Source: Bacillota bacterium
Lineage (GTDB): Bacteria > Bacillota > Dehalobacteriia > UBA4068
Reading direction: 5' to 3'
NCBI GenBank assembly: GCA_030527285.1
Contig: JAUNBC010000006.1
Coordinates: 1,259-65,258 of the forward strand
Length of the DNA: 64,000 bases
Under the pieces are notes generated by a model. It was given only the letters and a program-made list of their open reading frames with translations. It searched no databases and was not told the origin of the DNA. The position numbers and the translations under genes were made by a program. This document shows positions 2 through 11,381 of the stretch, one piece after another. Within the stretch, counting starts at the first letter, position 1. Each line of letters begins with the position of its first letter.

Positions 2-41
2 ATTATACCATTATGCGAGTTACATAATCGGTTACATTTTA
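2..41 (-). promoter_or_regulatory. Promoter for a gene beyond the left edge: TAAAATGTAAC-N7-GTAACTC-N9-TATAAT
   Basis: Minus strand reads TATAAT (2-7) preceded by TGG (extended -10). GTTAC repeats at 19-23 and 31-35 on the plus strand. Same architecture as 4678-4717. Confidence 0.7.
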
Positions 42-163: not shown

Positions 164-3100
164 TTAGGCCTTGGAGCGGCTCGCCTTGAAGCTGTATGCG
201 ATGCCCGCCATAGCGGCCAGCATCAGCAGCGCCCACAGCGTCGCCGTTCCGGCGTCGTCGGTTTGCGGCGCGTCGGCCAGCGGGATCTCCTCCTCGATGA
301 TTATCGGCTCAGCCTCAGGCACCGGCTCTTCCGGGATATAGGTCGGCGGATCCGGCGGATTCGGCGGAGGAGGAATGTTCGGGATGACGTTGCGCAGATA
401 ATTGACTACGAACGTACCGGTGGGATTCTCCTTAGTCAGCTCCACTTGCAGCTGCTCCGCGATACCAAGGTTCATGGCGGTATAGTTGTAGCTGTTGCCG
501 CCGTAGACTCTGCTCGCAGCGGGGCTGAAGCCGTAGACCTGCGCGCCGTTCATCTCGCCGTCGTACGACCCGCTTTCGCTGCCGTCTAAGGTAGGCGTAC
601 CGCCATTGATGCTGGTGTAGTAATTATAGGTGACGCCGAGGCTGTACTCGATATTGGGGAAGATGTTATAGCAGGTGATATTCAGCCTGAAGCCGGTTGC
701 GCGCAGATCATCCAGATCGATGCTGCCGCTGCAGGTAGTTGTATCGTAATGCCACGGATTGGGCGCACCCGCGATCGGGTAACCGTTTTCATCCACGCCC
801 GAAGCAGCCTTGGCCGGAACATGATAATTGGTAGTTACAGCGCCCAGGTCATCGGTCTCGATCAGCTCAAAGTTGAGGACGCCAAGCTTATCAGGTACGG
901 GCGGAAGATCTTCCTCTCTCACATTTGCCACCACCGGCACGCCGCCGGTGTTGGCATTGAACGTGTTTATCTCCTCGTTCAACACTTCAACGATTTCCTC
1001 CTGCTCTTCCAGAGCTGCCACGACGTCCCGCAGGAAGCCGAAATACTCGGTCTCGCCGTCTCTCAGCTTAAATTCATAAACGTTCTCCGCCAGCGCAGCC
1101 TCGGCATCCGCCAAAGCCTGGTACAGCGGCTTATAGCTATCAAAAGCGGCGACGCGCTCAGGGACTTCCTGCGGGCTGGAGGAGGCCCACGGAACGCCGT
1201 TCTCATCCACTCCCGAATAAGCGCAGACTGCGGCGATCCGGGCGTCGATTACTGCATTGCAAATCCCGATTGCATCCTTCAATGCGGCCAGCTCAGACCT
1301 GCGCGCAGCTTTCTTCGATTCTAAGTTCTCCAGCTTTGTAGCATAATCCGGATCATCCTCATCAAGAGCAGCAAGTTGCAAATTGAGGCCGTTAAGCACC
1401 GTATCGTCCCAGTCGTCACCGAGCAAAACTTCCCCCAGAACGTAAGCGACCTCTGCATCCGTGAAGGATGGCTCCACATCCAGCTCCTCGCGCAGCTTAT
1501 AATAGATAGCGCTCAGCACTTGCGCCGGATCGTTGATAGGAGCAACGAACAACATCGTGTCTTTCATTTTCAATGCTTCAAATTCGGCTAAAGCATCCAG
1601 ATAGGCGTCGAACAAGGCGCGGTCAGTCTCGTTGATCTTGGCGCTGATCTCAGCTTCGGCGGCCGCAATAGCCGCGCCCAATTCATCCTCGCCCTGCCAG
1701 AAGCGGATGCTGAAGGAGAAGTAGTCGTCCTCGCCCAGCGGCGCGGTCTCACCGGTAGCCAGCTTGGTAACGCTCATGCCGACCTGACCGTAATTGTTGA
1801 CGCAGACGATCTCGATATTATCCGTGATCCTGAGCTCGCTCACATAGTCAGGCTCTTGATTAGCGCCGTCGACCACGTAATAGGTACCGAAATCACTACC
1901 GGTAGTGGTCTCCGTCAGACTGATCAAGTCTCCGACTTGGACGGTGAAGCTCTTGCTTGCGCCGTCAGCCAGGGAGAACGTCTCAGCTTCGCCTTCGTTG
2001 ATGCTCAATTCGAATTCATATTCCGTACCCGCTGCCGGCAGCAGCTCGGAGTCGCCGATGACTTGCTTGGTGACCGTCAAAGTACGCTCCTCGGCTTTGT
2101 TTTGCAGCTCTGCGGGATCAGTGCTCGTAACTTCGGTTTCGTTCATATAGACCTTGCCGAAGCTCACGCTGAAGGAGGAATTAGCCATCTTGGCAAAGCC
2201 CTCGGGAACGGTGGTCTCCTCCAGCATATAAGTCTGGCCGGAGGGCAGGCCGATGATGGAGCCTTTGCCGTCCTCGCCGGTCAAGCTGGAACTCTTACTA
2301 TAAGAAACTCCGCTCGTGGCGGTAAATCCCGCGCCCGGCAACGCGGTATATACGTTCGGCGCTTCAGCGCTATTGCCCGTCTTGCTGAAATTGAAATCGG
2401 CCTGATAGCCGAACACCGTCGGCGAGGTAAAGGCCGTTTCCATCTCGTCGCTCAAGCTGATATTGCCGTCTGTGTCCACATCGCGGAACTGATATTTAAG
2501 CTCCGCGCTGCTGTTAGTGGGATATACGCCGCTTGTAGCGTCCGCTGCGGGACGCGTGCCCGCCGCATAGCCGATGAAGCCGTCAGCCAGCGTATCGAGC
2601 CTGACGCGATAGGTCAGCGAATAATGATACTCAGTCGTAGCGCCGTCCCCGGAGCCGGTGGTAGTACTATTGCGCGAGCTCTGCAGGCGCAGATCCCAGA
2701 CAAAGCTATCGTTATCCGGGTCATAGCGCAATACGCCGCGCGCATTCTCAGCCGTGGCGGCCTCGCTCTCGGTGGTCAGATCGAGCGCGCCGTTCTCCAA
2801 CAGCAGGCTTTGGAAGCCGACGAAATCGACCATAGCGCCCATGGCGTCGGTGACCATCCATACGTCCACGCCCATGGTGATGCTGCCGTTGATCGCTTCA
2901 AAGATGGGCTGTAAGCTCGTCAAGGCGTTACTGGCAGTATAAGCCGTACCGCTGCTGGTGGCTAAGCTATTGAGCAGCGCATTAGCCGTAGTGCCGGCGT
3001 CAAAGGCGATGGTATGCAGCGTAGCGCCATTGTTCTTGACCGCGTTAGCGCCGGCAATAGCGCCCGCTCTATCGGCGTTGTTCATCCGGTTTCCGCCACC

Positions 3101-4015
3101 CCGAATGCCGGTAATGGTTCCGGTTTTGGCCAGGTTAGCTGCGTTCCAATATTCTTTATAAGCGGCCTCTCCGCCATCGACCCAATTCCAGCTAATATTA
3201 CCCCTGTTGCCCATTCTCCAGTAACCGTAGTCGTTATGACCGCGGCAGCCGGTATGATCCTGGCAGCCAGAACTATTTTGAGAAAGAATGGATCTAAACT
3301 CTGTCCAGGGGTCGACCTCATCATTACCCGTGTACGTCGCGTGGAAGGTCGGTACGCCGTCGCTGAGGAATATCACGTGCTTGCTGCAGCCCTCAATGGC
3401 CGCGTCGTTCAGCAGATTGGCGGCTAATTGCAGGCCGCCCTGAGCATTGGTGCCGCCGCTGGCGCTCAGTCCGTTGACAACGCCCTTGGCGGTGGTAGCG
3501 TTTGCAGCGGTGGCAACGTCCTGCCAGCCGGAGTTAACGGTGGCGTCCGAGGCGAAGGAGACGATCGCCAGATAGCGCTTGGCGGTGCTGCCCTCGGCCA
3601 GATCGGAATAAATGTCGATGAAACCGCCTTCAGCAGTCAAGACTGTCTTTACATTCGCCAGGCGGGTGGAATTGTTATTAACCATCGAGCTGGAGGTGTC
3701 GATGACCAGCACCACGGCAGCGTCCTCGCTGACGGAGGTCCAGAGAATATCCTCGGTGGTCTTCACGTCCAGCGTGATATCAAAGACGTTCTCGTATTCG
3801 GTGCCGGCGATAGTCTTGTTGACCGTCAGGCGGCCGGCGTTATCTGTGTCTTCCGCGTGCGGGTCAACGGCGGTAGCGTCAGCGCCGCTGACTATCTGCA
3901 CCGAGCTGGCCGGAGTCGTGGTTTCCGCCAGGGCGACGCCCATCAGCAGCGGGATGACCAGCAGCACGGTCAGCAGCACCAGCAACCCTTTCCTGTTCTT
4001 GATCTTTGCCATCAT
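164..4015 (-). CDS. Sortase-anchored surface adhesin 1: signal peptide, vWA domain, pilin/SpaA-like Ig repeats, doubled-motif LPXTG-type anchor
   Basis: Signal peptide MAKIKNRKGLLVLL; MIDAS DTSSSM; FLSDG; IEEEIPLADAPQTDD then hydrophobic helix and basic tail. Start moved from 4198 to 4015 (RBS GAAAGGGG) because the longer ORF runs through the riboswitch. Confidence 0.85.
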   Translation of the reverse strand: MMAKIKNRKGLLVLLTVLLVIPLLMGVALAETTTPASSVQIVSGADATAVDPHAEDTDNAGRLTVNKTIAGTEYENVFDITLDVKTTEDILWTSVSEDAAVVLVIDTSSSMVNNNSTRLANVKTVLTAEGGFIDIYSDLAEGSTAKRYLAIVSFASDATVNSGWQDVATAANATTAKGVVNGLSASGGTNAQGGLQLAANLLNDAAIEGCSKHVIFLSDGVPTFHATYTGNDEVDPWTEFRSILSQNSSGCQDHTGCRGHNDYGYWRMGNRGNISWNWVDGGEAAYKEYWNAANLAKTGTITGIRGGGNRMNNADRAGAIAGANAVKNNGATLHTIAFDAGTTANALLNSLATSSGTAYTASNALTSLQPIFEAINGSITMGVDVWMVTDAMGAMVDFVGFQSLLLENGALDLTTESEAATAENARGVLRYDPDNDSFVWDLRLQSSRNSTTTGSGDGATTEYHYSLTYRVRLDTLADGFIGYAAGTRPAADATSGVYPTNSSAELKYQFRDVDTDGNISLSDEMETAFTSPTVFGYQADFNFSKTGNSAEAPNVYTALPGAGFTATSGVSYSKSSSLTGEDGKGSIIGLPSGQTYMLEETTVPEGFAKMANSSFSVSFGKVYMNETEVTSTDPAELQNKAEERTLTVTKQVIGDSELLPAAGTEYEFELSINEGEAETFSLADGASKSFTVQVGDLISLTETTTGSDFGTYYVVDGANQEPDYVSELRITDNIEIVCVNNYGQVGMSVTKLATGETAPLGEDDYFSFSIRFWQGEDELGAAIAAAEAEISAKINETDRALFDAYLDALAEFEALKMKDTMLFVAPINDPAQVLSAIYYKLREELDVEPSFTDAEVAYVLGEVLLGDDWDDTVLNGLNLQLAALDEDDPDYATKLENLESKKAARRSELAALKDAIGICNAVIDARIAAVCAYSGVDENGVPWASSSPQEVPERVAAFDSYKPLYQALADAEAALAENVYEFKLRDGETEYFGFLRDVVAALEEQEEIVEVLNEEINTFNANTGGVPVVANVREEDLPPVPDKLGVLNFELIETDDLGAVTTNYHVPAKAASGVDENGYPIAGAPNPWHYDTTTCSGSIDLDDLRATGFRLNITCYNIFPNIEYSLGVTYNYYTSINGGTPTLDGSESGSYDGEMNGAQVYGFSPAASRVYGGNSYNYTAMNLGIAEQLQVELTKENPTGTFVVNYLRNVIPNIPPPPNPPDPPTYIPEEPVPEAEPIIIEEEIPLADAPQTDDAGTATLWALLMLAAMAGIAYSFKASRSKA

Positions 4016-4039: not shown

Positions 4040-4127
4040 ATATGGCAGCCGGCTGTCCTGCTCCCGATGCGGGAGTTTAGACCCTTGGCTTTGCGTCGCG
4101 GCGTTTCCGCCGGTTTGCCTTTTCATC
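4040..4127 (-). promoter_or_regulatory. c-di-GMP-I (GEMM-I) riboswitch aptamer
   Basis: GGCAAACCGGCG-GAAA-CGCCGCGACGCAAAGCC...GGGTCTAA...ACAGCCGGCTGCC matches the GEMM-I consensus; ends about 12 nt before the RBS. Confidence 0.9.
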
Positions 4128-4284
4128 ATTTCGCACGCCAGATAGATTTGACGCGGCTTGATAATAAAACTAACCCTGATATCTGAAATAAACTGCAACG
4201 AGCGACATAATGCTTACTGCGAATAACAAAGAGTATCATTGTAGCGCATACGGCCATACGGGGCGATCCCCCAAGTATGAAGTC

Positions 4285-4470
4285 CTATGCTGATTTTACC
4301 ACCTCCGCCATAGCTCCGTCAATAAGTTTTAACAGTTCTAATGCGGAGCGGAAGCTGACAGTCTCCCCCGTATCGCTCCACACCAGTTTCCCTTGCCATG
4401 TGGCATGTTCGCGACCCAGGATCTGAATGACGAAGGTGCTCCGCTCCCTGTCTTTCTTCACGTTGCTCAT
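4285..4470 (-). CDS. Small uncharacterised 61-aa protein (WQG...FRSALELLKLID family)
   Basis: RBS GAAGGGA; clear paralog of the C-terminal half of 9501-9950. Confidence 0.8.
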   Translation of the reverse strand: MSNVKKDRERSTFVIQILGREHATWQGKLVWSDTGETVSFRSALELLKLIDGAMAEVVKSA

Positions 4471-4677: not shown

Positions 4678-4717
4678 ATTATACGCATGATAGAGTTACG
4701 CGAATAGTTACATTTTA
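4678..4717 (-). promoter_or_regulatory. Promoter TAAAATGTAAC-N7-GTAACTC-N9-TATAAT driving the 61-aa gene and probably adhesin 1
   Basis: Plus strand ATTATA 4678-4683, GAGTTAC 4693-4699, GTTACATTTTA 4707-4717; same spacing as 2-41. Confidence 0.7.
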
Positions 4718-4982: not shown

Positions 4983-7900
4983 TTAACCGCGGCTGCGGCG
5001 GCGGCCGAACACCACCACGCCGGCCAGAGCCAGCGCTCCGAGCGCCAGCCACAGATAAAGCTGCGCGCTATCACCGGTGGGCGGTACGTCCGCCAGCGGT
5101 ACGTCCTCCTCGATAATGGTTGTAATATCCGTTGTCGGGGCCGGCTCCTCTATAATGACCGTATCAGTCTGCGGCACCACCGGATCAGGGATGCGAATCG
5201 GCTGATCGGGGCCGGGGCCGGGCGGCGGATCCTCCGGGATGATCGGCGTGCTATAGGTGTTGGTCGCCGTCATACCATTGCAAACTGTACTATAATTCGG
5301 GGATACGGTAAGTTCAACAATGCGGTAGCTGATCTCCGCACCCTGCTTGTCATATTTGGGGTAGGTGCCGATAGACTCAGTCCAGTCGCTGCCATCGGCG
5401 CTGCCGCTTATGGTGTGTACGATTTCTACGCCATCCGTGCCCAACTCGCGCACGTCGTTGATATACAGGGCGAAGTCCAGGGACTCGGGGTAGTCATAAT
5501 TCGTGGGGAAGTCGACCCATTTCTTGGTGATAGTCAGCTCAATGTCCTCGCTCAGCAGGTTGACCAGATTTAAGGGGTCGCTCGCCGGCGTGACGTTCGT
5601 GTAATTACTCGGTAAATTCAGCTCCTCCACGGTGTATACGATAGGCGTTATGCCATCCGTATTATACTTGTCAAGGCCCTTAAATACATACTGCCAGCCA
5701 TTGCCCTCATTGAGATCGACCTGAACTCCTACCGGGGCACCATTAGCCAAGAGCTGGATTGTCAGTATATCAGGACGGGTTGTGTAGGCGTTATCATTAT
5801 CCAGCCAAGTCTTAGTCACTTGCACCATATGCTTCAGCGAATTGGTGAAGGTGTAGGCGTAGGTGTTGGTGTCGGTGTTGGTGTTGGTGTTGGTGTCTGG
5901 GAGAGTAACGATGGTGGAATATAAAGGAACATCTTTCTCCACCACGCGGTAGCTGACGCCGTCAAGCTTGGGCGCGTAGAAGGTATGCATCAGCGTGCTC
6001 GTATTTACGGCGCTGCCGGAAGCAACTTCTTGCTCTTCAACGTCGCTCCATTCGATCTCTCCATTAACAACCTCGCCCTTTTGCAGAACGAAGGTGATCG
6101 TCGCCGGCCGGTCGGCGCTGGGGGCTGTTACGCCATTGGTCTCAACTCCGTCATCCCAGATCTTATATACGGGGAAGCTGAGCAGGTCGAGCGTATTGGT
6201 CAGGGTCGCGGTATAGCTGCCCGCGGTACTACCATCGGTGATCACCGCCTCCGCCGGCTTATAGCCGGGAACAACCTCCTCAATGAACACATAGTTGGCT
6301 TCAACTATATCGTTGCCGATCTTGATATATTTCGGCAGGGTGACGCTGAGCTTGTAGTTTTTGCTCGGGTCTGTATCTTTTTTCAACTCGTAGCTTCCGA
6401 GCTTCGTATCGGTAGTAATTCCATCGGTCGTACTGCGATGATAGAGATAGACCGTAACGCTATCGGGACGCAGGCCGAAGTAATCCTCGGTGCTGTCATA
6501 CGTATCATCCCATACCTTACTCAGAGTGACATTGATGGTCTTCAGCGTATTGGTGATGGTGATGATCTTGTCACCATTATCAACAGCCACCTCATCGGTA
6601 TAGCCGACCGGAACATCCTCTTTGATATAATCTCCAGTAAGATCATCATACGCGACCGGCAGGCTCACCGTGGTAGTCCAATTCCCTGCCGGGGTGTTGC
6701 TGGCGGCGAGTGACTGATTGTCAATGATTTTGGTCGGCTGCTCTTTTTCCGGGTCGTCAATGATATCGAATGTGACCGAAGCCGGACGCAGCTTGAAATA
6801 AGCATTGGTCGATGCGCCATTTTCCATAATGCCAGCAATGGTGTCGCCTTTCCATTCCTTGTTCACCGTCCATTCGGTGGCAGGGGGAGTATAGGTGTTG
6901 GTGAGGGTGATGATTTTGCCATTCGCGTCATAAGCGCCATAGGCGAATTTTGAGAAAGCATTAGAGCTACTGAAATTAAGCCCAAGCTTGCCGTCGTTTC
7001 CAACAGTAATAGTCACGCTACCCCGATTACCACTATTACCCATTGTAATTGTTGCCGAGGTGCCAGAGACAAAATCATTGACAGTAATACTACCAAGCTG
7101 GTTGGCATTAGAATGCGCTTGTTTCCAGGCGTTGAACGCCGTGACAAAGGCCGTCTTCTGCGTATCCGTCAATGTGTTCTGCGTCCAGACCTTAGTGTTA
7201 TTGCCCTTGTTCACCATGATAAAAGCAGCGGAAAGATCATTGTACGCCAATTCATTACAGGGGTTTACGACCTCAAGCGACGTGATAGACAGCGCCTTTG
7301 GTACCGGGTCGCCCACTACTGTCATAGTATAATTATCGGGTTCTGTTTCCGTGACGCTGTAATCGTCATACGGCAGGCTGTTCCAGGTATATGTCCAGTT
7401 TTTGCTCGGATCGGTATTCGCACTCAGAGTCACCGGGTCGCCATAAGGGGTTGCGGTTTGTCCGCTTCCTCTATAAAGCTGCACCACAAGCTCCGTGGGC
7501 TGATTGGCCGCCGGATTATTTCCATGATCCCAGAGCTTATTAACAGTAAAGCTGGTGACGGCGTTCACGCTCACCGGCTCGAAAGCGATGACCGTCGGCA
7601 CCTTGAAATTGATGGTTTGCTTGCCACCCTGGATAACGCCGTTGTTCAAGATGGCGTAATCGAGGACGGTGGCGTCATTGGTCGGATAGATGCCCTTGGC
7701 GATCAGCGCGGCAGCTTTCTCGTCGGCGCGGAAATCTGCAGAACGGTCGTTGTCGACGATTTCGTTATAATCATCCAGCGCGTCTCCACGATCCTTGCCG
7801 TCGGTCACGCTGGCATAATAATTGAAGTTGGTAGTTGTGTCGAGCGTGACTTGATACTTCAGCTCGTAATTGTACCAGATTTGATTATTTTTGCCTCCTC

Positions 7901-9134
7901 CCGTTGTCGTCGGGGTAGCTTTACGCAGATCCCAAATTAGCTGATCATTATTGTCGTCGGTAGGCATGGTGACGCCAGTAGCGCCCTCGGTGAGGATGCT
8001 GTCAAACTTGATGTTCGCGCCCATGGGGTCGGTGACCATCCACGCCTCAGCCCAGATGGCAATATTCTCGGAGATCGCTTTAAACTGATTTGCCAGCGTA
8101 GTTGCATTTGCGGCAGTCAGCGCGCAGCCGCTGTTAGCGATGCTGGAAAGATCAGGAGCACTGGCGGCAAAAGCGATGGTATAGATCGTAACACCACTCC
8201 GTTTGAGCGAAGTAGCCACATCCACGCCGGTATCGGTGACGTTCTCGCCCTTAATTTCGGTGAGTGAGTTTCTTTGGCTGGCGATACGCTTATTCGGCGC
8301 GCCGTCGGAGAGCAGTATCACATAGACCTCGTCGATGCCCGCGAGGTCATCCTTGAAAGTACCATCGTTCTGGCGATGGGCGTCGATATTATTCTTCGCC
8401 AGCTGCAGGCCGGCCTGAATATTGGTACCGGTATACAGCTTGTATTTCAAGCCGCTGACCACATCCTGGGCAGCTGCGATATTATCATCCAAGCCGGAAA
8501 GCTCCGTCCAATTCATTTGGCGTTTAGCGTCAGTAGCGAAATGGACGATAGAAAGCAGCCTTTTATAGCTCGCACTGGACGCGCTGGCGGCATAGTCGGC
8601 AATGAAAGCATTGGCGGCGCTGATGGCGGCGCTGATACGCTGCTCGTCCTCCGCCGCATAGACGGAGTCGCCGCTGTTATGACCGTTGGCTGGGATATGA
8701 TAATACTCATCGTCTCCATCACAAAGCGGGCAATCATCACCTTTATAATCCGTGCCTGTGCAGTAACCGCCGCCGGCGGCATCCCACTGCATGGAGACCG
8801 AGGTATCTATCACCAAAGCGACGGCGATATTCTTATCGGTGGGGATACTGGTCAGATCCTGCGTAGTGGTGACCTTGAGCGTGATATCAAAGGTATCCTC
8901 GACCCACTCGCCGCCAGTCGTCTTGACCTGCTCGATGGTCTTTTCTACCTCGACAAGATTGGCGGTTCTTTCGCCGCCCGTATACACGACCTGCGGCCCT
9001 ATTGATGATGGTTGTTGACCTGAACCCCCGCCGCTATGATGTCCATACGATAGCGCGTAGCCGAACAATACCGGCAGCACCAAGACCAGCGTTACTATTA
9101 CCGCGATCAGTTTTCCCCTTCTTTTCGCCTTCAT
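4983..9134 (-). CDS. Sortase-anchored surface adhesin 2: signal peptide, vWA domain, multiple Cna B-type repeats, doubled-motif VPPTG anchor
   Basis: MIDAS DTSVSM; LLSDG; repeats starting V(N/T/S/Y)K.W and ending (L/F/A)TN; IEEDVPLADVPPTGD then TM helix and RRRSRG. Start moved from 9311 to 9134 (RBS GAAAGGAG). Confidence 0.87.
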   Translation of the reverse strand: MKAKRRGKLIAVIVTLVLVLPVLFGYALSYGHHSGGGSGQQPSSIGPQVVYTGGERTANLVEVEKTIEQVKTTGGEWVEDTFDITLKVTTTQDLTSIPTDKNIAVALVIDTSVSMQWDAAGGGYCTGTDYKGDDCPLCDGDDEYYHIPANGHNSGDSVYAAEDEQRISAAISAANAFIADYAASASSASYKRLLSIVHFATDAKRQMNWTELSGLDDNIAAAQDVVSGLKYKLYTGTNIQAGLQLAKNNIDAHRQNDGTFKDDLAGIDEVYVILLSDGAPNKRIASQRNSLTEIKGENVTDTGVDVATSLKRSGVTIYTIAFAASAPDLSSIANSGCALTAANATTLANQFKAISENIAIWAEAWMVTDPMGANIKFDSILTEGATGVTMPTDDNNDQLIWDLRKATPTTTGGGKNNQIWYNYELKYQVTLDTTTNFNYYASVTDGKDRGDALDDYNEIVDNDRSADFRADEKAAALIAKGIYPTNDATVLDYAILNNGVIQGGKQTINFKVPTVIAFEPVSVNAVTSFTVNKLWDHGNNPAANQPTELVVQLYRGSGQTATPYGDPVTLSANTDPSKNWTYTWNSLPYDDYSVTETEPDNYTMTVVGDPVPKALSITSLEVVNPCNELAYNDLSAAFIMVNKGNNTKVWTQNTLTDTQKTAFVTAFNAWKQAHSNANQLGSITVNDFVSGTSATITMGNSGNRGSVTITVGNDGKLGLNFSSSNAFSKFAYGAYDANGKIITLTNTYTPPATEWTVNKEWKGDTIAGIMENGASTNAYFKLRPASVTFDIIDDPEKEQPTKIIDNQSLAASNTPAGNWTTTVSLPVAYDDLTGDYIKEDVPVGYTDEVAVDNGDKIITITNTLKTINVTLSKVWDDTYDSTEDYFGLRPDSVTVYLYHRSTTDGITTDTKLGSYELKKDTDPSKNYKLSVTLPKYIKIGNDIVEANYVFIEEVVPGYKPAEAVITDGSTAGSYTATLTNTLDLLSFPVYKIWDDGVETNGVTAPSADRPATITFVLQKGEVVNGEIEWSDVEEQEVASGSAVNTSTLMHTFYAPKLDGVSYRVVEKDVPLYSTIVTLPDTNTNTNTDTNTYAYTFTNSLKHMVQVTKTWLDNDNAYTTRPDILTIQLLANGAPVGVQVDLNEGNGWQYVFKGLDKYNTDGITPIVYTVEELNLPSNYTNVTPASDPLNLVNLLSEDIELTITKKWVDFPTNYDYPESLDFALYINDVRELGTDGVEIVHTISGSADGSDWTESIGTYPKYDKQGAEISYRIVELTVSPNYSTVCNGMTATNTYSTPIIPEDPPPGPGPDQPIRIPDPVVPQTDTVIIEEPAPTTDITTIIEEDVPLADVPPTGDSAQLYLWLALGALALAGVVVFGRRRSRG
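5862..5897. repeat. In-frame hexamer microsatellite GGTGT(T/C) x6 encoding DTNTNTNTDTNT
   Basis: Six direct 6-bp units read in the sequence. Confidence 0.85.
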
Positions 9135-9167: not shown

Positions 9168-9252
9168 CCCGGCAACCCGGCCGGCATAGGCCCCTGCCCG
9201 TAGCCCCTGTGGCTTTGCGTCGCGGCGTTTCCGCCGTTTTGCCCTTTTCCGT
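9168..9252 (-). promoter_or_regulatory. c-di-GMP-I (GEMM-I) riboswitch aptamer
   Basis: GGGCAAAACGGCG-GAAA-CGCCGCGACGCAAAGCCACAGGGGCTA...GGCCGGGTTGCC; 27 bp (9210-9236) identical to 4086-4112. Confidence 0.88.
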
Positions 9253-9377
9253 ATTCCGCGGCGGCAGATGGGATTTGCCGCCGCCTGTATGTTATAAAAT
9301 TGCCAAAACATGAAACCGATAATTATGTTATGAAGCGCTCAAAAGCCCACGCGGAGACACGCCTCCACTTATGGAAT

Positions 9378-9406
9378 ATGATAGCAAAAAAAGCCGTCCC
9401 TTTCAA
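9378..9406 (-). promoter_or_regulatory. Sigma-A-type promoter for adhesin 2
   Basis: TTGAAA-N17-TATCAT on the minus strand. Confidence 0.6.
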
Positions 9407-9452: not shown

Positions 9453-9480
9453 TAAAAAAAAGAACGGCCAAAGCCGTCCT
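9453..9480 (-). terminator. Intrinsic terminator after the 149-aa gene
   Basis: GGACGGC-tttg-GCCGTTC followed by a T8 run on the minus strand. Confidence 0.7.
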
Positions 9481-9500: not shown

Positions 9501-9950
9501 TTATTGATTGGAAATCTGGTAAACGCAACCATCTATCAGCTTCAACAGCTCCAGCGCCGAGCGGAAATTGCGCGATACGCCCCGCTCCTGCCACAGCACC
9601 TGCCCCTGCCAGGAGACGTTCTGCCGCTGACGCAGCCGCACGATGAAGGTGGCCAGCTCGCCGCGCTGCTCGCGCACAAGCCGCGCCTCCATAAGCAGCG
9701 GCGGCAGCGGCGGCAGCGCCGGAGCCGCCTTCCGCTCGCTCCGGCCAAAGCTGCGCATCGCCTGCGTGGCCTGCGGCAAGCCCAGGCTCTCGTACAGCTC
9801 GTCCATCAGCAGCAGCGCGCGGCTGATATCGGCAAACTGCTGCGCGCCCGCGGCATAGCAATGATAAAGACGGCCGGCGACCATATGATGCTCAAAGCTA
9901 TCCACGCATAAACAGACGATATTCTCGATCTGCGGTAATATACGATTCAT
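9501..9950 (-). CDS. Uncharacterised 149-aa protein with two internal repeats of the FRSALELL-family domain
   Basis: C-half TFIVRL..WQGQVLW..FRSALELLKLIDG matches the 61-aa protein; directly downstream of the BTAD regulator. Confidence 0.8.
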   Translation of the reverse strand: MNRILPQIENIVCLCVDSFEHHMVAGRLYHCYAAGAQQFADISRALLLMDELYESLGLPQATQAMRSFGRSERKAAPALPPLPPLLMEARLVREQRGELATFIVRLRQRQNVSWQGQVLWQERGVSRNFRSALELLKLIDGCVYQISNQ

Positions 9951-9985: not shown

Positions 9986-11230
9986 TTACCAGCTCACCGT
10001 CGGCGAGAAGGAAACGCGGCCGTCGGCGATGGCGGCGGTATTGGCCGGCGTGATCTTGTATTGCAGGCGCACGCCGCGCCCGTGGTAGCGCTCCTGAAAC
10101 ACCTTGTCGATACGCTGCGAAACGATATCGCAATTCTCCTGCGAAATACCGATCAGCAGCGTCAGGAATTGCGAGGCCGAATAGCGCGTGTACAGGTCGC
10201 CGCGGCGCAGCGCCAGGCGAATGGCCTCATGCAGTCCGTCCACCACCTCCTGCATACGCGGGCCGGCCGTCAGCGCCACGCCGGCGGCGTCGGTGACGGT
10301 GACGCTCATCAGGAACACCGATTGACCGGTGCGCTCGATGATGCGCATGACGAAGCGGTAGCTGTCGATAAAGGTCAGATAATTGCAATAGAAGGCGCCG
10401 CTCTCGTCGCCGGCCTCCTGCAAGTCGCTCTTGATATCGTCAAGTATCGCCCAGGGGAACTGCGCGGCCTCGCGCATTTTCTTATACAGCGCGATCATCT
10501 TCTCGCCCGGGGATACGTTCAGCTCATTGAAGAACATCGAGGTCACCGCGTCATAGGCGGCCAGCGCCTCCTTGAAGCGCTTGAGCTCGAACAGGCAGCT
10601 GATGCGCAGCACCTGCACGTCCTCGTTATACAGGTCGATCTTGGCGGCGCGGTTGCAGATGGCGAGCAGCGTCTGATAATCCTTGCGCTCCGACAGCAGG
10701 CGGTACAGCTCATTGATCGCCTGAATGTACATCTTCTGATAGCGCACCGCTAATATCGACACCCAGCTCTCTATCGCCATACGCGGCAGGAAATCGCCCT
10801 TATACAGCTCCACGGCGCGCGTATAGCCGGCGATACGCGCATCGTCGTCGATATCGGGGCCGGAGGCCTGCTGAAAGGCCTTCTCAAACTCCTCGGTATC
10901 AATGACGGTCGGTATCTCGTTATTCCAAAAATAGACGCCGCGCCGGTAACAGATATAATCATAATCAGGCAGGCCGGCATTGGCCAGCAGCTTGCGCATA
11001 CGGTGGATGATGATCTTCAAGGCATTGCCGGGATTATCAATATCCTCCTCCTCGTACAGCAGCTCGATCAGCGAGTCGCGCGTGGCGCCCTTCTCGCGGT
11101 TGACCAGCAGGTATTGCAGCAGATACATCGCCTTGTTGTTGCGATTCTGCTCGATAGCCTGCGCGCCGTCCTCGGTGGAAATAGTGAAACCGCCAAACAT
11201 GCTGACCCTGATCGTCTCCAATAGAGCCAT
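9986..11230 (-). CDS. SARP-family regulator: winged HTH, BTAD domain and degenerate GGDEF domain
   Basis: IRVSMFGGF...LLQYLLVN...RDSLIELL...IHRMRK (AfsR/DnrI-type wHTH); ELYKGDFL and ELNVSPG (BTAD); LRRGDLYTRYSASQF aligns with RxxD-xxx-RxGGDEF. RBS GGGAGGAG. Confidence 0.88.
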   Translation of the reverse strand: MALLETIRVSMFGGFTISTEDGAQAIEQNRNNKAMYLLQYLLVNREKGATRDSLIELLYEEEDIDNPGNALKIIIHRMRKLLANAGLPDYDYICYRRGVYFWNNEIPTVIDTEEFEKAFQQASGPDIDDDARIAGYTRAVELYKGDFLPRMAIESWVSILAVRYQKMYIQAINELYRLLSERKDYQTLLAICNRAAKIDLYNEDVQVLRISCLFELKRFKEALAAYDAVTSMFFNELNVSPGEKMIALYKKMREAAQFPWAILDDIKSDLQEAGDESGAFYCNYLTFIDSYRFVMRIIERTGQSVFLMSVTVTDAAGVALTAGPRMQEVVDGLHEAIRLALRRGDLYTRYSASQFLTLLIGISQENCDIVSQRIDKVFQERYHGRGVRLQYKITPANTAAIADGRVSFSPTVSW

Positions 11231-11294
11231 AAGCACACTCCTCCCAAGCCAGACTGTTCATGAACGGAAATATAGTATATCCCTATATAAACTA

Positions 11295-11323
11295 ATTATA
11301 CGCAACAGGGTGTTATATGTCAA
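11295..11323 (-). promoter_or_regulatory. Consensus sigma-A promoter of the regulator
   Basis: TTGACA-N17-TATAAT, perfect match. Confidence 0.85.
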
Positions 11324-11359: not shown

Positions 11360-11381
11360 ATGTAACCATATTGCGTAACTC
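11360..11381 (+). promoter_or_regulatory. Third copy of the GTAAC repeat motif, inverted, upstream of the regulator promoter
   Basis: ATGTAAC-CATATTGC-GTAACTC (8-nt spacer instead of 7). Confidence 0.5.

Follow-up and report, generated by a model that had tools for sequence, protein, structure and literature searches.

A Clostridia SARP-type regulator ending in a truncated, catalytically dead GGDEF domain with an invariant inhibitory site is a candidate c-di-GMP-responsive activator

The 64,000-nucleotide stretch analyzed here (the window; part of contig JAUNBC010000006.1 of the Bacillota assembly GCA_030527285.1) carries on its minus strand a gene for a transcriptional regulator of the SARP family, followed by a gene for a small 149-amino-acid (aa) protein and a series of genes for surface and secreted proteins. 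The regulator, here called SARP-dGGDEF, combines a DNA-binding and activation module with a C-terminal relative of the GGDEF cyclase domain, and an earlier interpretation made from the letters alone (the sequence-only reading) had taken it for a transcription factor that senses cyclic di-GMP (c-di-GMP). The gene is laid out as follows, with residue numbers that refer to the 416-aa open reading frame (ORF).

9986..11236, minus strand: SARP-dGGDEF regulator gene, a 416-aa ORF from GTG
10901..11236, minus strand: OmpR/PhoB-type winged-helix DNA-binding domain, residues 1-112 (Pfam, sequence match, Foldseek)
10475..10900, minus strand: BTAD (bacterial transcriptional activator) helical domain, residues 113-254 (Pfam, Foldseek)
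10037..10399, minus strand: truncated degenerate GGDEF palm domain, residues ~280-400, ~120 aa (profile, model, Foldseek, hhalign)
10331..10345, minus strand: R298 and R302 on helix alpha1, candidate secondary arginines of the inhibitory site (I-site), placed by spacing only
10196..10207, minus strand: RRGD, the I-site RxxD, residues 344-347 with R344 and D347 (alignment)
10166..10180, minus strand: SASQF in place of GG(D/E)EF, residues 353-357 (alignment)
10112..10114, minus strand: R375, at the position of PleD R390, the third primary I-site residue, 18 residues after the F of the motif
11295..11323, minus strand: the regulator's consensus sigma-70 promoter, TTGACA-N17-TATAAT

The true start of the gene is probably the ATG at 11230, which would give a protein of 414 aa, because this ATG sits behind GGGAGGAG and the database entry P0002 is also 414 aa long. 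Only a single copy is present in this genome. At the N-terminus, Pfam identifies Trans_reg_C at residues 34-90 (26.5 bits against a cut-off of 26.2), with the PhoB-family regulator 5dcm as a sequence match to this winged helix, directly followed by BTAD (PF03704; 52.1 bits against a cut-off of 22.1, E 1.2e-13), for which Foldseek returns 2fez, 8k60 and 8hvr. An AlphaFold2 model built from the family alignment reaches a predicted local distance difference test score (pLDDT) of 90.7 and a predicted template-modelling score (pTM) of 0.79, and its N-terminal two-thirds match EmbR and AfsR (Foldseek, E 1e-10 to 7e-8). The N-terminal winged helix and BTAD domain are a SARP module, the same pairing that is found in AfsR, ActII-ORF4 and DnrI of Streptomyces and in EmbR of M. 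tuberculosis. These activators differ in the sensor that they carry: AfsR has an NOD/TPR ATPase, EmbR an FHA domain and the small SARPs none, whereas the present regulator ends in a dead GGDEF domain.

This C-terminal domain, which occupies part of the 3' third of the ORF, follows the order alpha1-beta1-alpha2-beta2-beta3-alpha3-beta4, whereupon the protein ends, lacking the last third of the normal GGDEF fold. The Pfam GGDEF profile matches residues 331-382 at a sub-threshold E of 0.012, over profile positions 58-109, which include both RxxD and GGDEF. A word-indexed search yielded 67 full-length homologs of 25-52% identity, and a profile of the C-terminal domain made from 43 homologs (alignment A2) matches solved GGDEF domains at E 7e-10 (4urg, 4urs), followed by SadC, DosC, WspR and DgcR; individually, 37 of these 43 members match PF00990 at E <= 0.1. 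The C-terminus of the model matches many GGDEF structures with target template-modelling (TM) scores of 0.5-0.73 and root-mean-square deviations of 2.3-4.5 Å over ~120 residues, 6khu, 4urg, 4urs and 3ign lying at TM 0.58-0.73 (Foldseek). As such, the fold check that the sequence-only reading had named comes out as a palm fold, and its degenerate GGDEF domain stands as a matter of homology, although not as a complete domain, since the chain stops after beta4. The gap-free alignment to the cyclase signature that it had claimed also reappears: in the domain profile, LRrgDvytrySasqf aligns without gaps to vRRsDvvaRYGGDEF of 4urg, and hhalign against the genome's own GGDEF domains leaves the RxxD/GGDEF register unchanged.

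The catalytic apparatus is gone. As previously described from the letters, GGDEF has become SASQF (residues 353-357, aligned on the motif); the family consensus at this position is S-x-[SNT]-Q-[FY], and a GG[DE]EF motif occurs in none of 147 family members. The DxD of beta1 and the base-binding N and D of alpha2 are both replaced as well. Judged by these residues, the domain cannot be a cyclase, because beta1 DxD, the N and D of alpha2 and GG(D/E)EF have all been replaced, and residual cyclase activity was ruled out on the ground that every catalytic residue is lost. What remains is a GGDEF palm stripped of its catalytic, metal-binding and substrate-binding residues and of its last third.

By contrast with the lost active site, the residues of the I-site are kept. 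The segment LRRGDLYTRYSASQFLTLL, encoded at 10210..10154 on the minus strand, holds RRGD five residues before SASQF, so that the RxxD reported earlier at the canonical distance is indeed intact, and R375 aligns with an Arg of 4urg in the domain profile. With the GGEEF motif of PleD at residues 368-372 (F372), the primary I-site spacings in the regulator match those of PleD. In the latter, the site comprises R359 and D362 (the RxxD) and R390 of the same domain together with R313 of a neighbouring domain (PMC7288161). The primary residues and their spacing, found in the product-inhibition sites of PleD and WspR, are the same in the regulator. Candidates for the counterpart of PleD R313 and WspR R198 are R298 and R302, which precede R344 by 46 and 42 residues, respectively, roughly the expected spacing; an intervening insertion or deletion precludes an exact assignment.

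Conservation was assessed in two sets, one of 147 distinct members (the 67 homologs plus 80 genomic loci) and one of 148 further representatives that are mutually <50% identical. R344, D347 and R375 are unchanged in 147/147 and 148/148 members; R302 is kept in 147/147 and 147/148, and R298 in 146/147 and 147/148. Mean column identity across the family is only 39%, and invariance of the I-site residues against this background indicates strong selection on exactly those residues that would contact c-di-GMP. The conservation of RxxD among homologs, which the sequence-only reading had proposed as a check, therefore holds throughout both sets.

A retained pocket need not have retained its ligand, and the regulator might instead bind and report a different nucleotide, such as GTP, pGpG, 3'3'-cGAMP, c-di-AMP or (p)ppGpp. 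Degenerate GGDEF domains with GTP sensing (CC3396) or ATPase activity (YybT) are known (PMC7288161), and the truncation together with the new hairpin motif could reshape specificity. However, CC3396 and YybT work through the active site, which in the regulator has lost its base-, phosphate- and metal-binding residues, whereas what the regulator retains is the c-di-GMP I-site set, and the neighbouring riboswitches described below score as c-di-GMP-I. Another nucleotide as the signal is for these reasons the most doubtful of the alternatives considered.

Receptors of a comparable kind are known. PelD of P. aeruginosa and PopA of Caulobacter also combine a dead motif with an RxxD five residues upstream and the third I-site Arg, and SgmT, YdaK and PssE are further degenerate-GGDEF I-site c-di-GMP receptors. 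Receptors of the PelD/PopA type, however, have a full-length GGDEF domain attached to membrane, GAF, receiver or kinase modules and no DNA-binding domain, whereas the domain of the regulator is truncated and fused to a SARP module. PucR/CdaR-type regulators (GGDEF_2, PF17853) are likewise transcription factors with a diverged GGDEF-like domain, but they differ in DNA-binding domain and architecture, and no I-site is known there; PF17853 is matched by only 1 of the 43 family members, and weakly (E 0.016).

The surroundings of the gene are dense in features related to c-di-GMP. The following elements lie around the regulator or belong to its putative circuit.

11361..11380, plus strand: inverted box TGTAAC-N8-GTAACT, upstream of the regulator's promoter
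9501..9950, minus strand: conserved 149-aa partner gene, starting 35 nt after the regulator end
9453..9477, minus strand: hairpin and T-run after the 149-aa gene, terminator-like
9378..9406, minus strand: sigma-70-like promoter TTGAAA-N17-TG-TATCAT ahead of riboswitch 1
9168..9253, minus strand: c-di-GMP-I riboswitch 1, leader of adhesin 1 (67.2 bits)
4983..9134, minus strand: adhesin 1, with VWA and Cna_B repeats and a C-terminal cell-wall-anchor-like tail
4678..4712, minus strand: box promoter TGTAAC-N7-GTAAC-N11-TATAAT, with no -35 element
4285..4470, minus strand: 61-aa single-repeat paralog of the partner, between box promoter and riboswitch 2
4041..4129, minus strand: c-di-GMP-I riboswitch 2, leader of adhesin 2 (73.9 bits)
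164..4015, minus strand: adhesin 2, with VWA, GBS104-like tip-pilin Ig and SpaA domains
2..36, minus strand: box promoter TGTAAC-N6-TGTAAC-N11-TATAAT, leading to riboswitch 3 and the secreted-protein gene
C31:1122-1214, minus strand: riboswitch 3, before the secreted-protein gene, just outside the window start
C5:57465-57683, plus strand: contig-5 single-repeat paralog of the partner

Read along the minus strand, the order is inverted box, consensus promoter, regulator, 149-aa gene, terminator-like hairpin, sigma-70-like promoter, riboswitch 1 and adhesin 1, and then box promoter, 61-aa gene, riboswitch 2, adhesin 2, box promoter, riboswitch 3 and secreted-protein gene. The leaders of three consecutive surface- or secreted-protein genes each contain a c-di-GMP-I riboswitch. 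The short distance of only ~15-20 nt from the end of the aptamer to the ribosome-binding site points to control of translation.

Judged from its gene content, the genome (an assembly of 1.63 Mb, 82% complete) makes and degrades c-di-GMP. The GGDEF motif is intact in two of its proteins, one of them with an RxxD of its own, and the phosphodiesterase side comprises two GGDEF-EAL proteins and one HD-GYP protein. Seven c-di-GMP-I riboswitches are present, two of them in the window and a third just before its start; no class II c-di-GMP riboswitch was found in the genome, and a search of the 82%-complete genome found no PilZ domain.

Adhesins as a family-wide neighbour of the regulator were ruled out, as the first co-directional downstream gene is heterogeneous across 65 loci: 12 encode DNA polymerase III delta' and 5 a transglutaminase-like protein, and no family exceeds 12 of the 65. 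This heterogeneity limits the adhesin/pilin link to the present genome and its closest relatives (L008, L009 and L076).

Another neighbour is the small gene directly behind the regulator. In at least 36 of 80 loci from other genomes (the foreign set), a homolog of the 149-aa protein is encoded beside the regulator, in 25 of them immediately downstream on the same strand, and in 8 of 13 riboswitch matches (window plus foreign loci) a small or mini gene lies <=~250 nt upstream on the same strand. The protein is modelled as two beta-beta-beta-alpha repeats (pLDDT 87.6), and its family shares an invariant RQ-x3-WQG-x3-W motif. It belongs to no Pfam or NCBIfam family, its sequence matches nothing in the PDB, and Foldseek gives its model no significant match (best E 0.23; Pur-alpha only at probability 0.04). 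A resemblance to DNA-binding domains made of a three-stranded sheet plus a helix, such as AP2 and the Tn916 integrase N-terminus, is our impression only.

The frequency of this neighbour bears on a second alternative, according to which the dead GGDEF domain would be a ligand-independent module for dimerization or partner binding, for instance for the small protein itself, with the invariant Arg and Asp forming a protein-protein or interdomain interface. Such a role would accord with the adjacency of the small gene, with the new conserved RYSxSQ[FY] on the former active-site hairpin and with the pTM of 0.79, which in the model suggests fixed packing of the domain against BTAD; moreover, 'large' SARPs use C-terminal domains for modulation (PMC10936776). 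An interface of this kind would nonetheless have to coincide with the I-site contacts for c-di-GMP, since the invariant residues are exactly these, in canonical spacing; the GGDEF fold in general does not need RxxD, and the genomic context is specific to c-di-GMP. A purely structural module is thus unlikely.

As for the promoters on which the regulator would act, a candidate is a repeated TGTAAC box. The strict form TGTAACN{6,9}GTAACT has four genomic copies, against none for the reversed control. Three of the four copies fall in the regulator/adhesin cluster and the fourth, on contig 27, lies 130 nt upstream of a riboswitch ahead of a Cna_B-type surface protein. The looser form GTAAC-N6-8-GTAAC has six genomic sites and is not enriched (reversed control 8); these six sites have common flanks, five starting with AAAATGTAAC or AAAAAGTAAC, and at five of the six a -10 hexamer follows after 10-11 nt with no -35 element. 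Boxes precede three of the seven riboswitches of the genome, and two additional ones stand before the small-protein paralog on contig 5 and before a secreted acidic protein plus lipoprotein on contig 17. No TGTAAC box precedes adhesin 1, which has an ordinary sigma-70-like promoter and the riboswitch instead. In the foreign loci (1.2 Mb), 11 of 19 box matches lie directly upstream of a small-gene homolog beside a SARP gene, in the form TGTAAC-N5-TGTAAC-N10-TATAAT, of which ~0.01 such placements are estimated by chance.

According to the published rule, the direct repeats of SARP promoters are spaced by 11 or 22 bp, and 8 bp separate the 3' repeat from the -10 element (PMC10936776). The TGTAAC repeats have a spacing of 11-12 bp, and TATAAT follows them after 10-11 nt. 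By its layout, this candidate operator has SARP-type promoter geometry, with direct repeats one helical turn apart in place of the -35 element. Position and promoter architecture make the box a putative binding site of the SARP-dGGDEF protein. It could also be bound by another factor, for instance the small beta-beta-beta-alpha-repeat protein, with the regulator acting on other promoters, and it is indeed to small-protein genes that the box is linked most tightly. Yet the one-helical-turn direct repeats abutting the -10 with no -35 are the SARP promoter signature, the box of divergent pairs lies within the intergenic region common to the SARP gene, and an inverted box stands upstream of the regulator's own promoter, all of which makes a different binding factor quite unlikely.

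A related repeat was seen elsewhere: four loci from Lacrimispora/Hungatella-like genomes (L058:19597, L064:19002, L067:19059 and L068:19039, plus strand) have a conserved GGTAAC-N6-GGTAAC ~9 kb downstream of the SARP-dGGDEF gene, which may be a further operator.

The family extends well beyond this genome. The domain profile retrieves 262 clusters (50% identity) at E <= 1e-30 and ~2,350 at E <= 1e-10. The best matches are mostly ~400 aa long with the domain at residues ~268-400, a uniformity of length and domain position that indicates a fixed architecture. Hosts of the genomic loci include Lachnospiraceae, Oscillospiraceae, Peptococcaceae, Diplocloster, Blautia, Lacrimispora, Anaerofustis and others, and members are plentiful among Clostridia of gut and rumen. 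In a sample of 52 genomes of the same order, from which one regulator hit was dropped as a true cyclase, the regulator is present in 16. A strong GGDEF match is found in 15 of these 16 genomes versus 24 of the 36 without the regulator (Fisher one-sided p 0.035); among genomes >=90% complete, the figures are 10/10 versus 15/23, with median GGDEF counts of 8 and 1. This co-occurrence agrees, weakly, with a role in c-di-GMP signaling.

The available data are compatible with a model in which the regulator is a one-component c-di-GMP-responsive SARP activator of transcription, to which we assign a probability of about 60%, and the sequence-only reading as a c-di-GMP-sensing transcription factor now stands as a well-supported hypothesis. 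In this model, an intercalated c-di-GMP dimer would bind the retained I-site and cross-link two protomers, by analogy with the GGDEF domains of PleD and WspR. The bridged dimer would bring its two winged helices onto the pair of TGTAAC direct repeats, and these would take the place of the -35 element, with the BTAD domains recruiting RNA polymerase, as has been shown for AfsR. The targets here would be the genes for small beta-beta-beta-alpha-repeat proteins and the operons for secreted and surface proteins. Three target operons with a c-di-GMP-I leader would be under double control, at initiation by the SARP and after initiation by the riboswitch. For such dual control by riboswitch and transcription factor through c-di-GMP, there is a precedent in Vibrio. 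The site that switches off catalysis in PleD and WspR would, in a regulator without catalysis, be repurposed as a signal input.

Several observations weigh against this model. The riboswitches already supply a c-di-GMP input, and the SARP could therefore integrate another signal. Near the regulator gene, riboswitches were seen in only 6 of the 80 foreign loci, a count obtained with a model (R1) that was built from one genome and has limited sensitivity. The regulator's PF00990 score of 15.8 bits is below the gathering threshold of 23.8, and the domain is truncated. Its former active-site hairpin has a conserved motif of its own, R-Y-S-x-[SNT]-Q-[FY] (Q356 is kept by 146 of 147 members), which the I-site does not explain and which hints at a role of another kind, for instance in binding a partner or some other ligand. 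What ties the box to the regulator is, as noted, position and promoter architecture. The phyletic association is weak, its p value being uncorrected for phylogeny, and one SARP-positive genome, 65% complete, has no GGDEF match.

Direct action of c-di-GMP on a DNA-binding regulator, as proposed here, has counterparts in FleQ, VpsT, VpsR, BldD, Clp, MrkH and LtmA, none of which is a SARP and none of which senses the ligand via a GGDEF I-site. For BldD and VpsT, published accounts describe ligand-mediated dimerization (PMC4151990, PMC3359988), and SARP-dGGDEF would act likewise. A full-text literature search turned up neither a SARP-GGDEF fusion nor a BTAD protein linked to c-di-GMP. Receptors built on the I-site of a dead GGDEF domain are known, as are transcription factors that bind c-di-GMP, but no SARP with a truncated domain is known to combine the two.

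The SARP family has so far been known from actinomycete antibiotic regulation, and c-di-GMP control of surface structures in Clostridia mainly via riboswitches. Where the known SARPs belong to Actinomycetes and antibiotic clusters, the present one belongs to Clostridia and has surface-protein genes as its proposed targets. If the model is correct, the protein sensor would itself be the transcription activator, filling a gap in a genome where no PilZ receptor was found; the SARP family would gain a new type of input; and the product-inhibition site of a cyclase would have been reused as a stand-alone signal input. Both here and in the closest relatives of this genome, the regulator adjoins adhesin/pilin genes, and it may therefore give commensals a path from c-di-GMP to attachment. 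A broader and more tentative proposal, which we hold to be possible rather than probable, is that SARP-dGGDEF proteins make up a large unrecognised Clostridia class of c-di-GMP-responsive activators, in which the GGDEF domain is stripped down to its I-site and the bridged dimer sits on TGTAAC repeats, with two-step control of adhesins and with the small protein, whose gene lies immediately ahead of the riboswitches, as an obligatory third component.

Further c-di-GMP elements were noted along the way. The weakest c-di-GMP-I match (43.7 bits; C31:76746-76827, minus strand) lies ~11.5 kb past the window end at the 5' end of the open frame for an intact GGDEF cyclase with RxxD (C31:74405-74863), and might let c-di-GMP feed back on its own production. 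The two top-scoring copies of the genome are near-identical c-di-GMP-I riboswitches that face apart with 264 nt between them (C1:11656-11740, minus strand, and C1:12004-12088, plus strand). In a Bacillota metagenome-assembled genome, three tandem c-di-GMP-I matches lie within 500 nt (L016:16755-17261, plus strand), ~5.6 kb downstream of its SARP-dGGDEF gene. Finally, C23:22728-23150 (plus strand; locus L005) encodes a degenerate GGDEF-like N-terminus, with RWNNATFALLL at the motif, fused to an HD-GYP phosphodiesterase domain (HHEALDGSGYPRGL).

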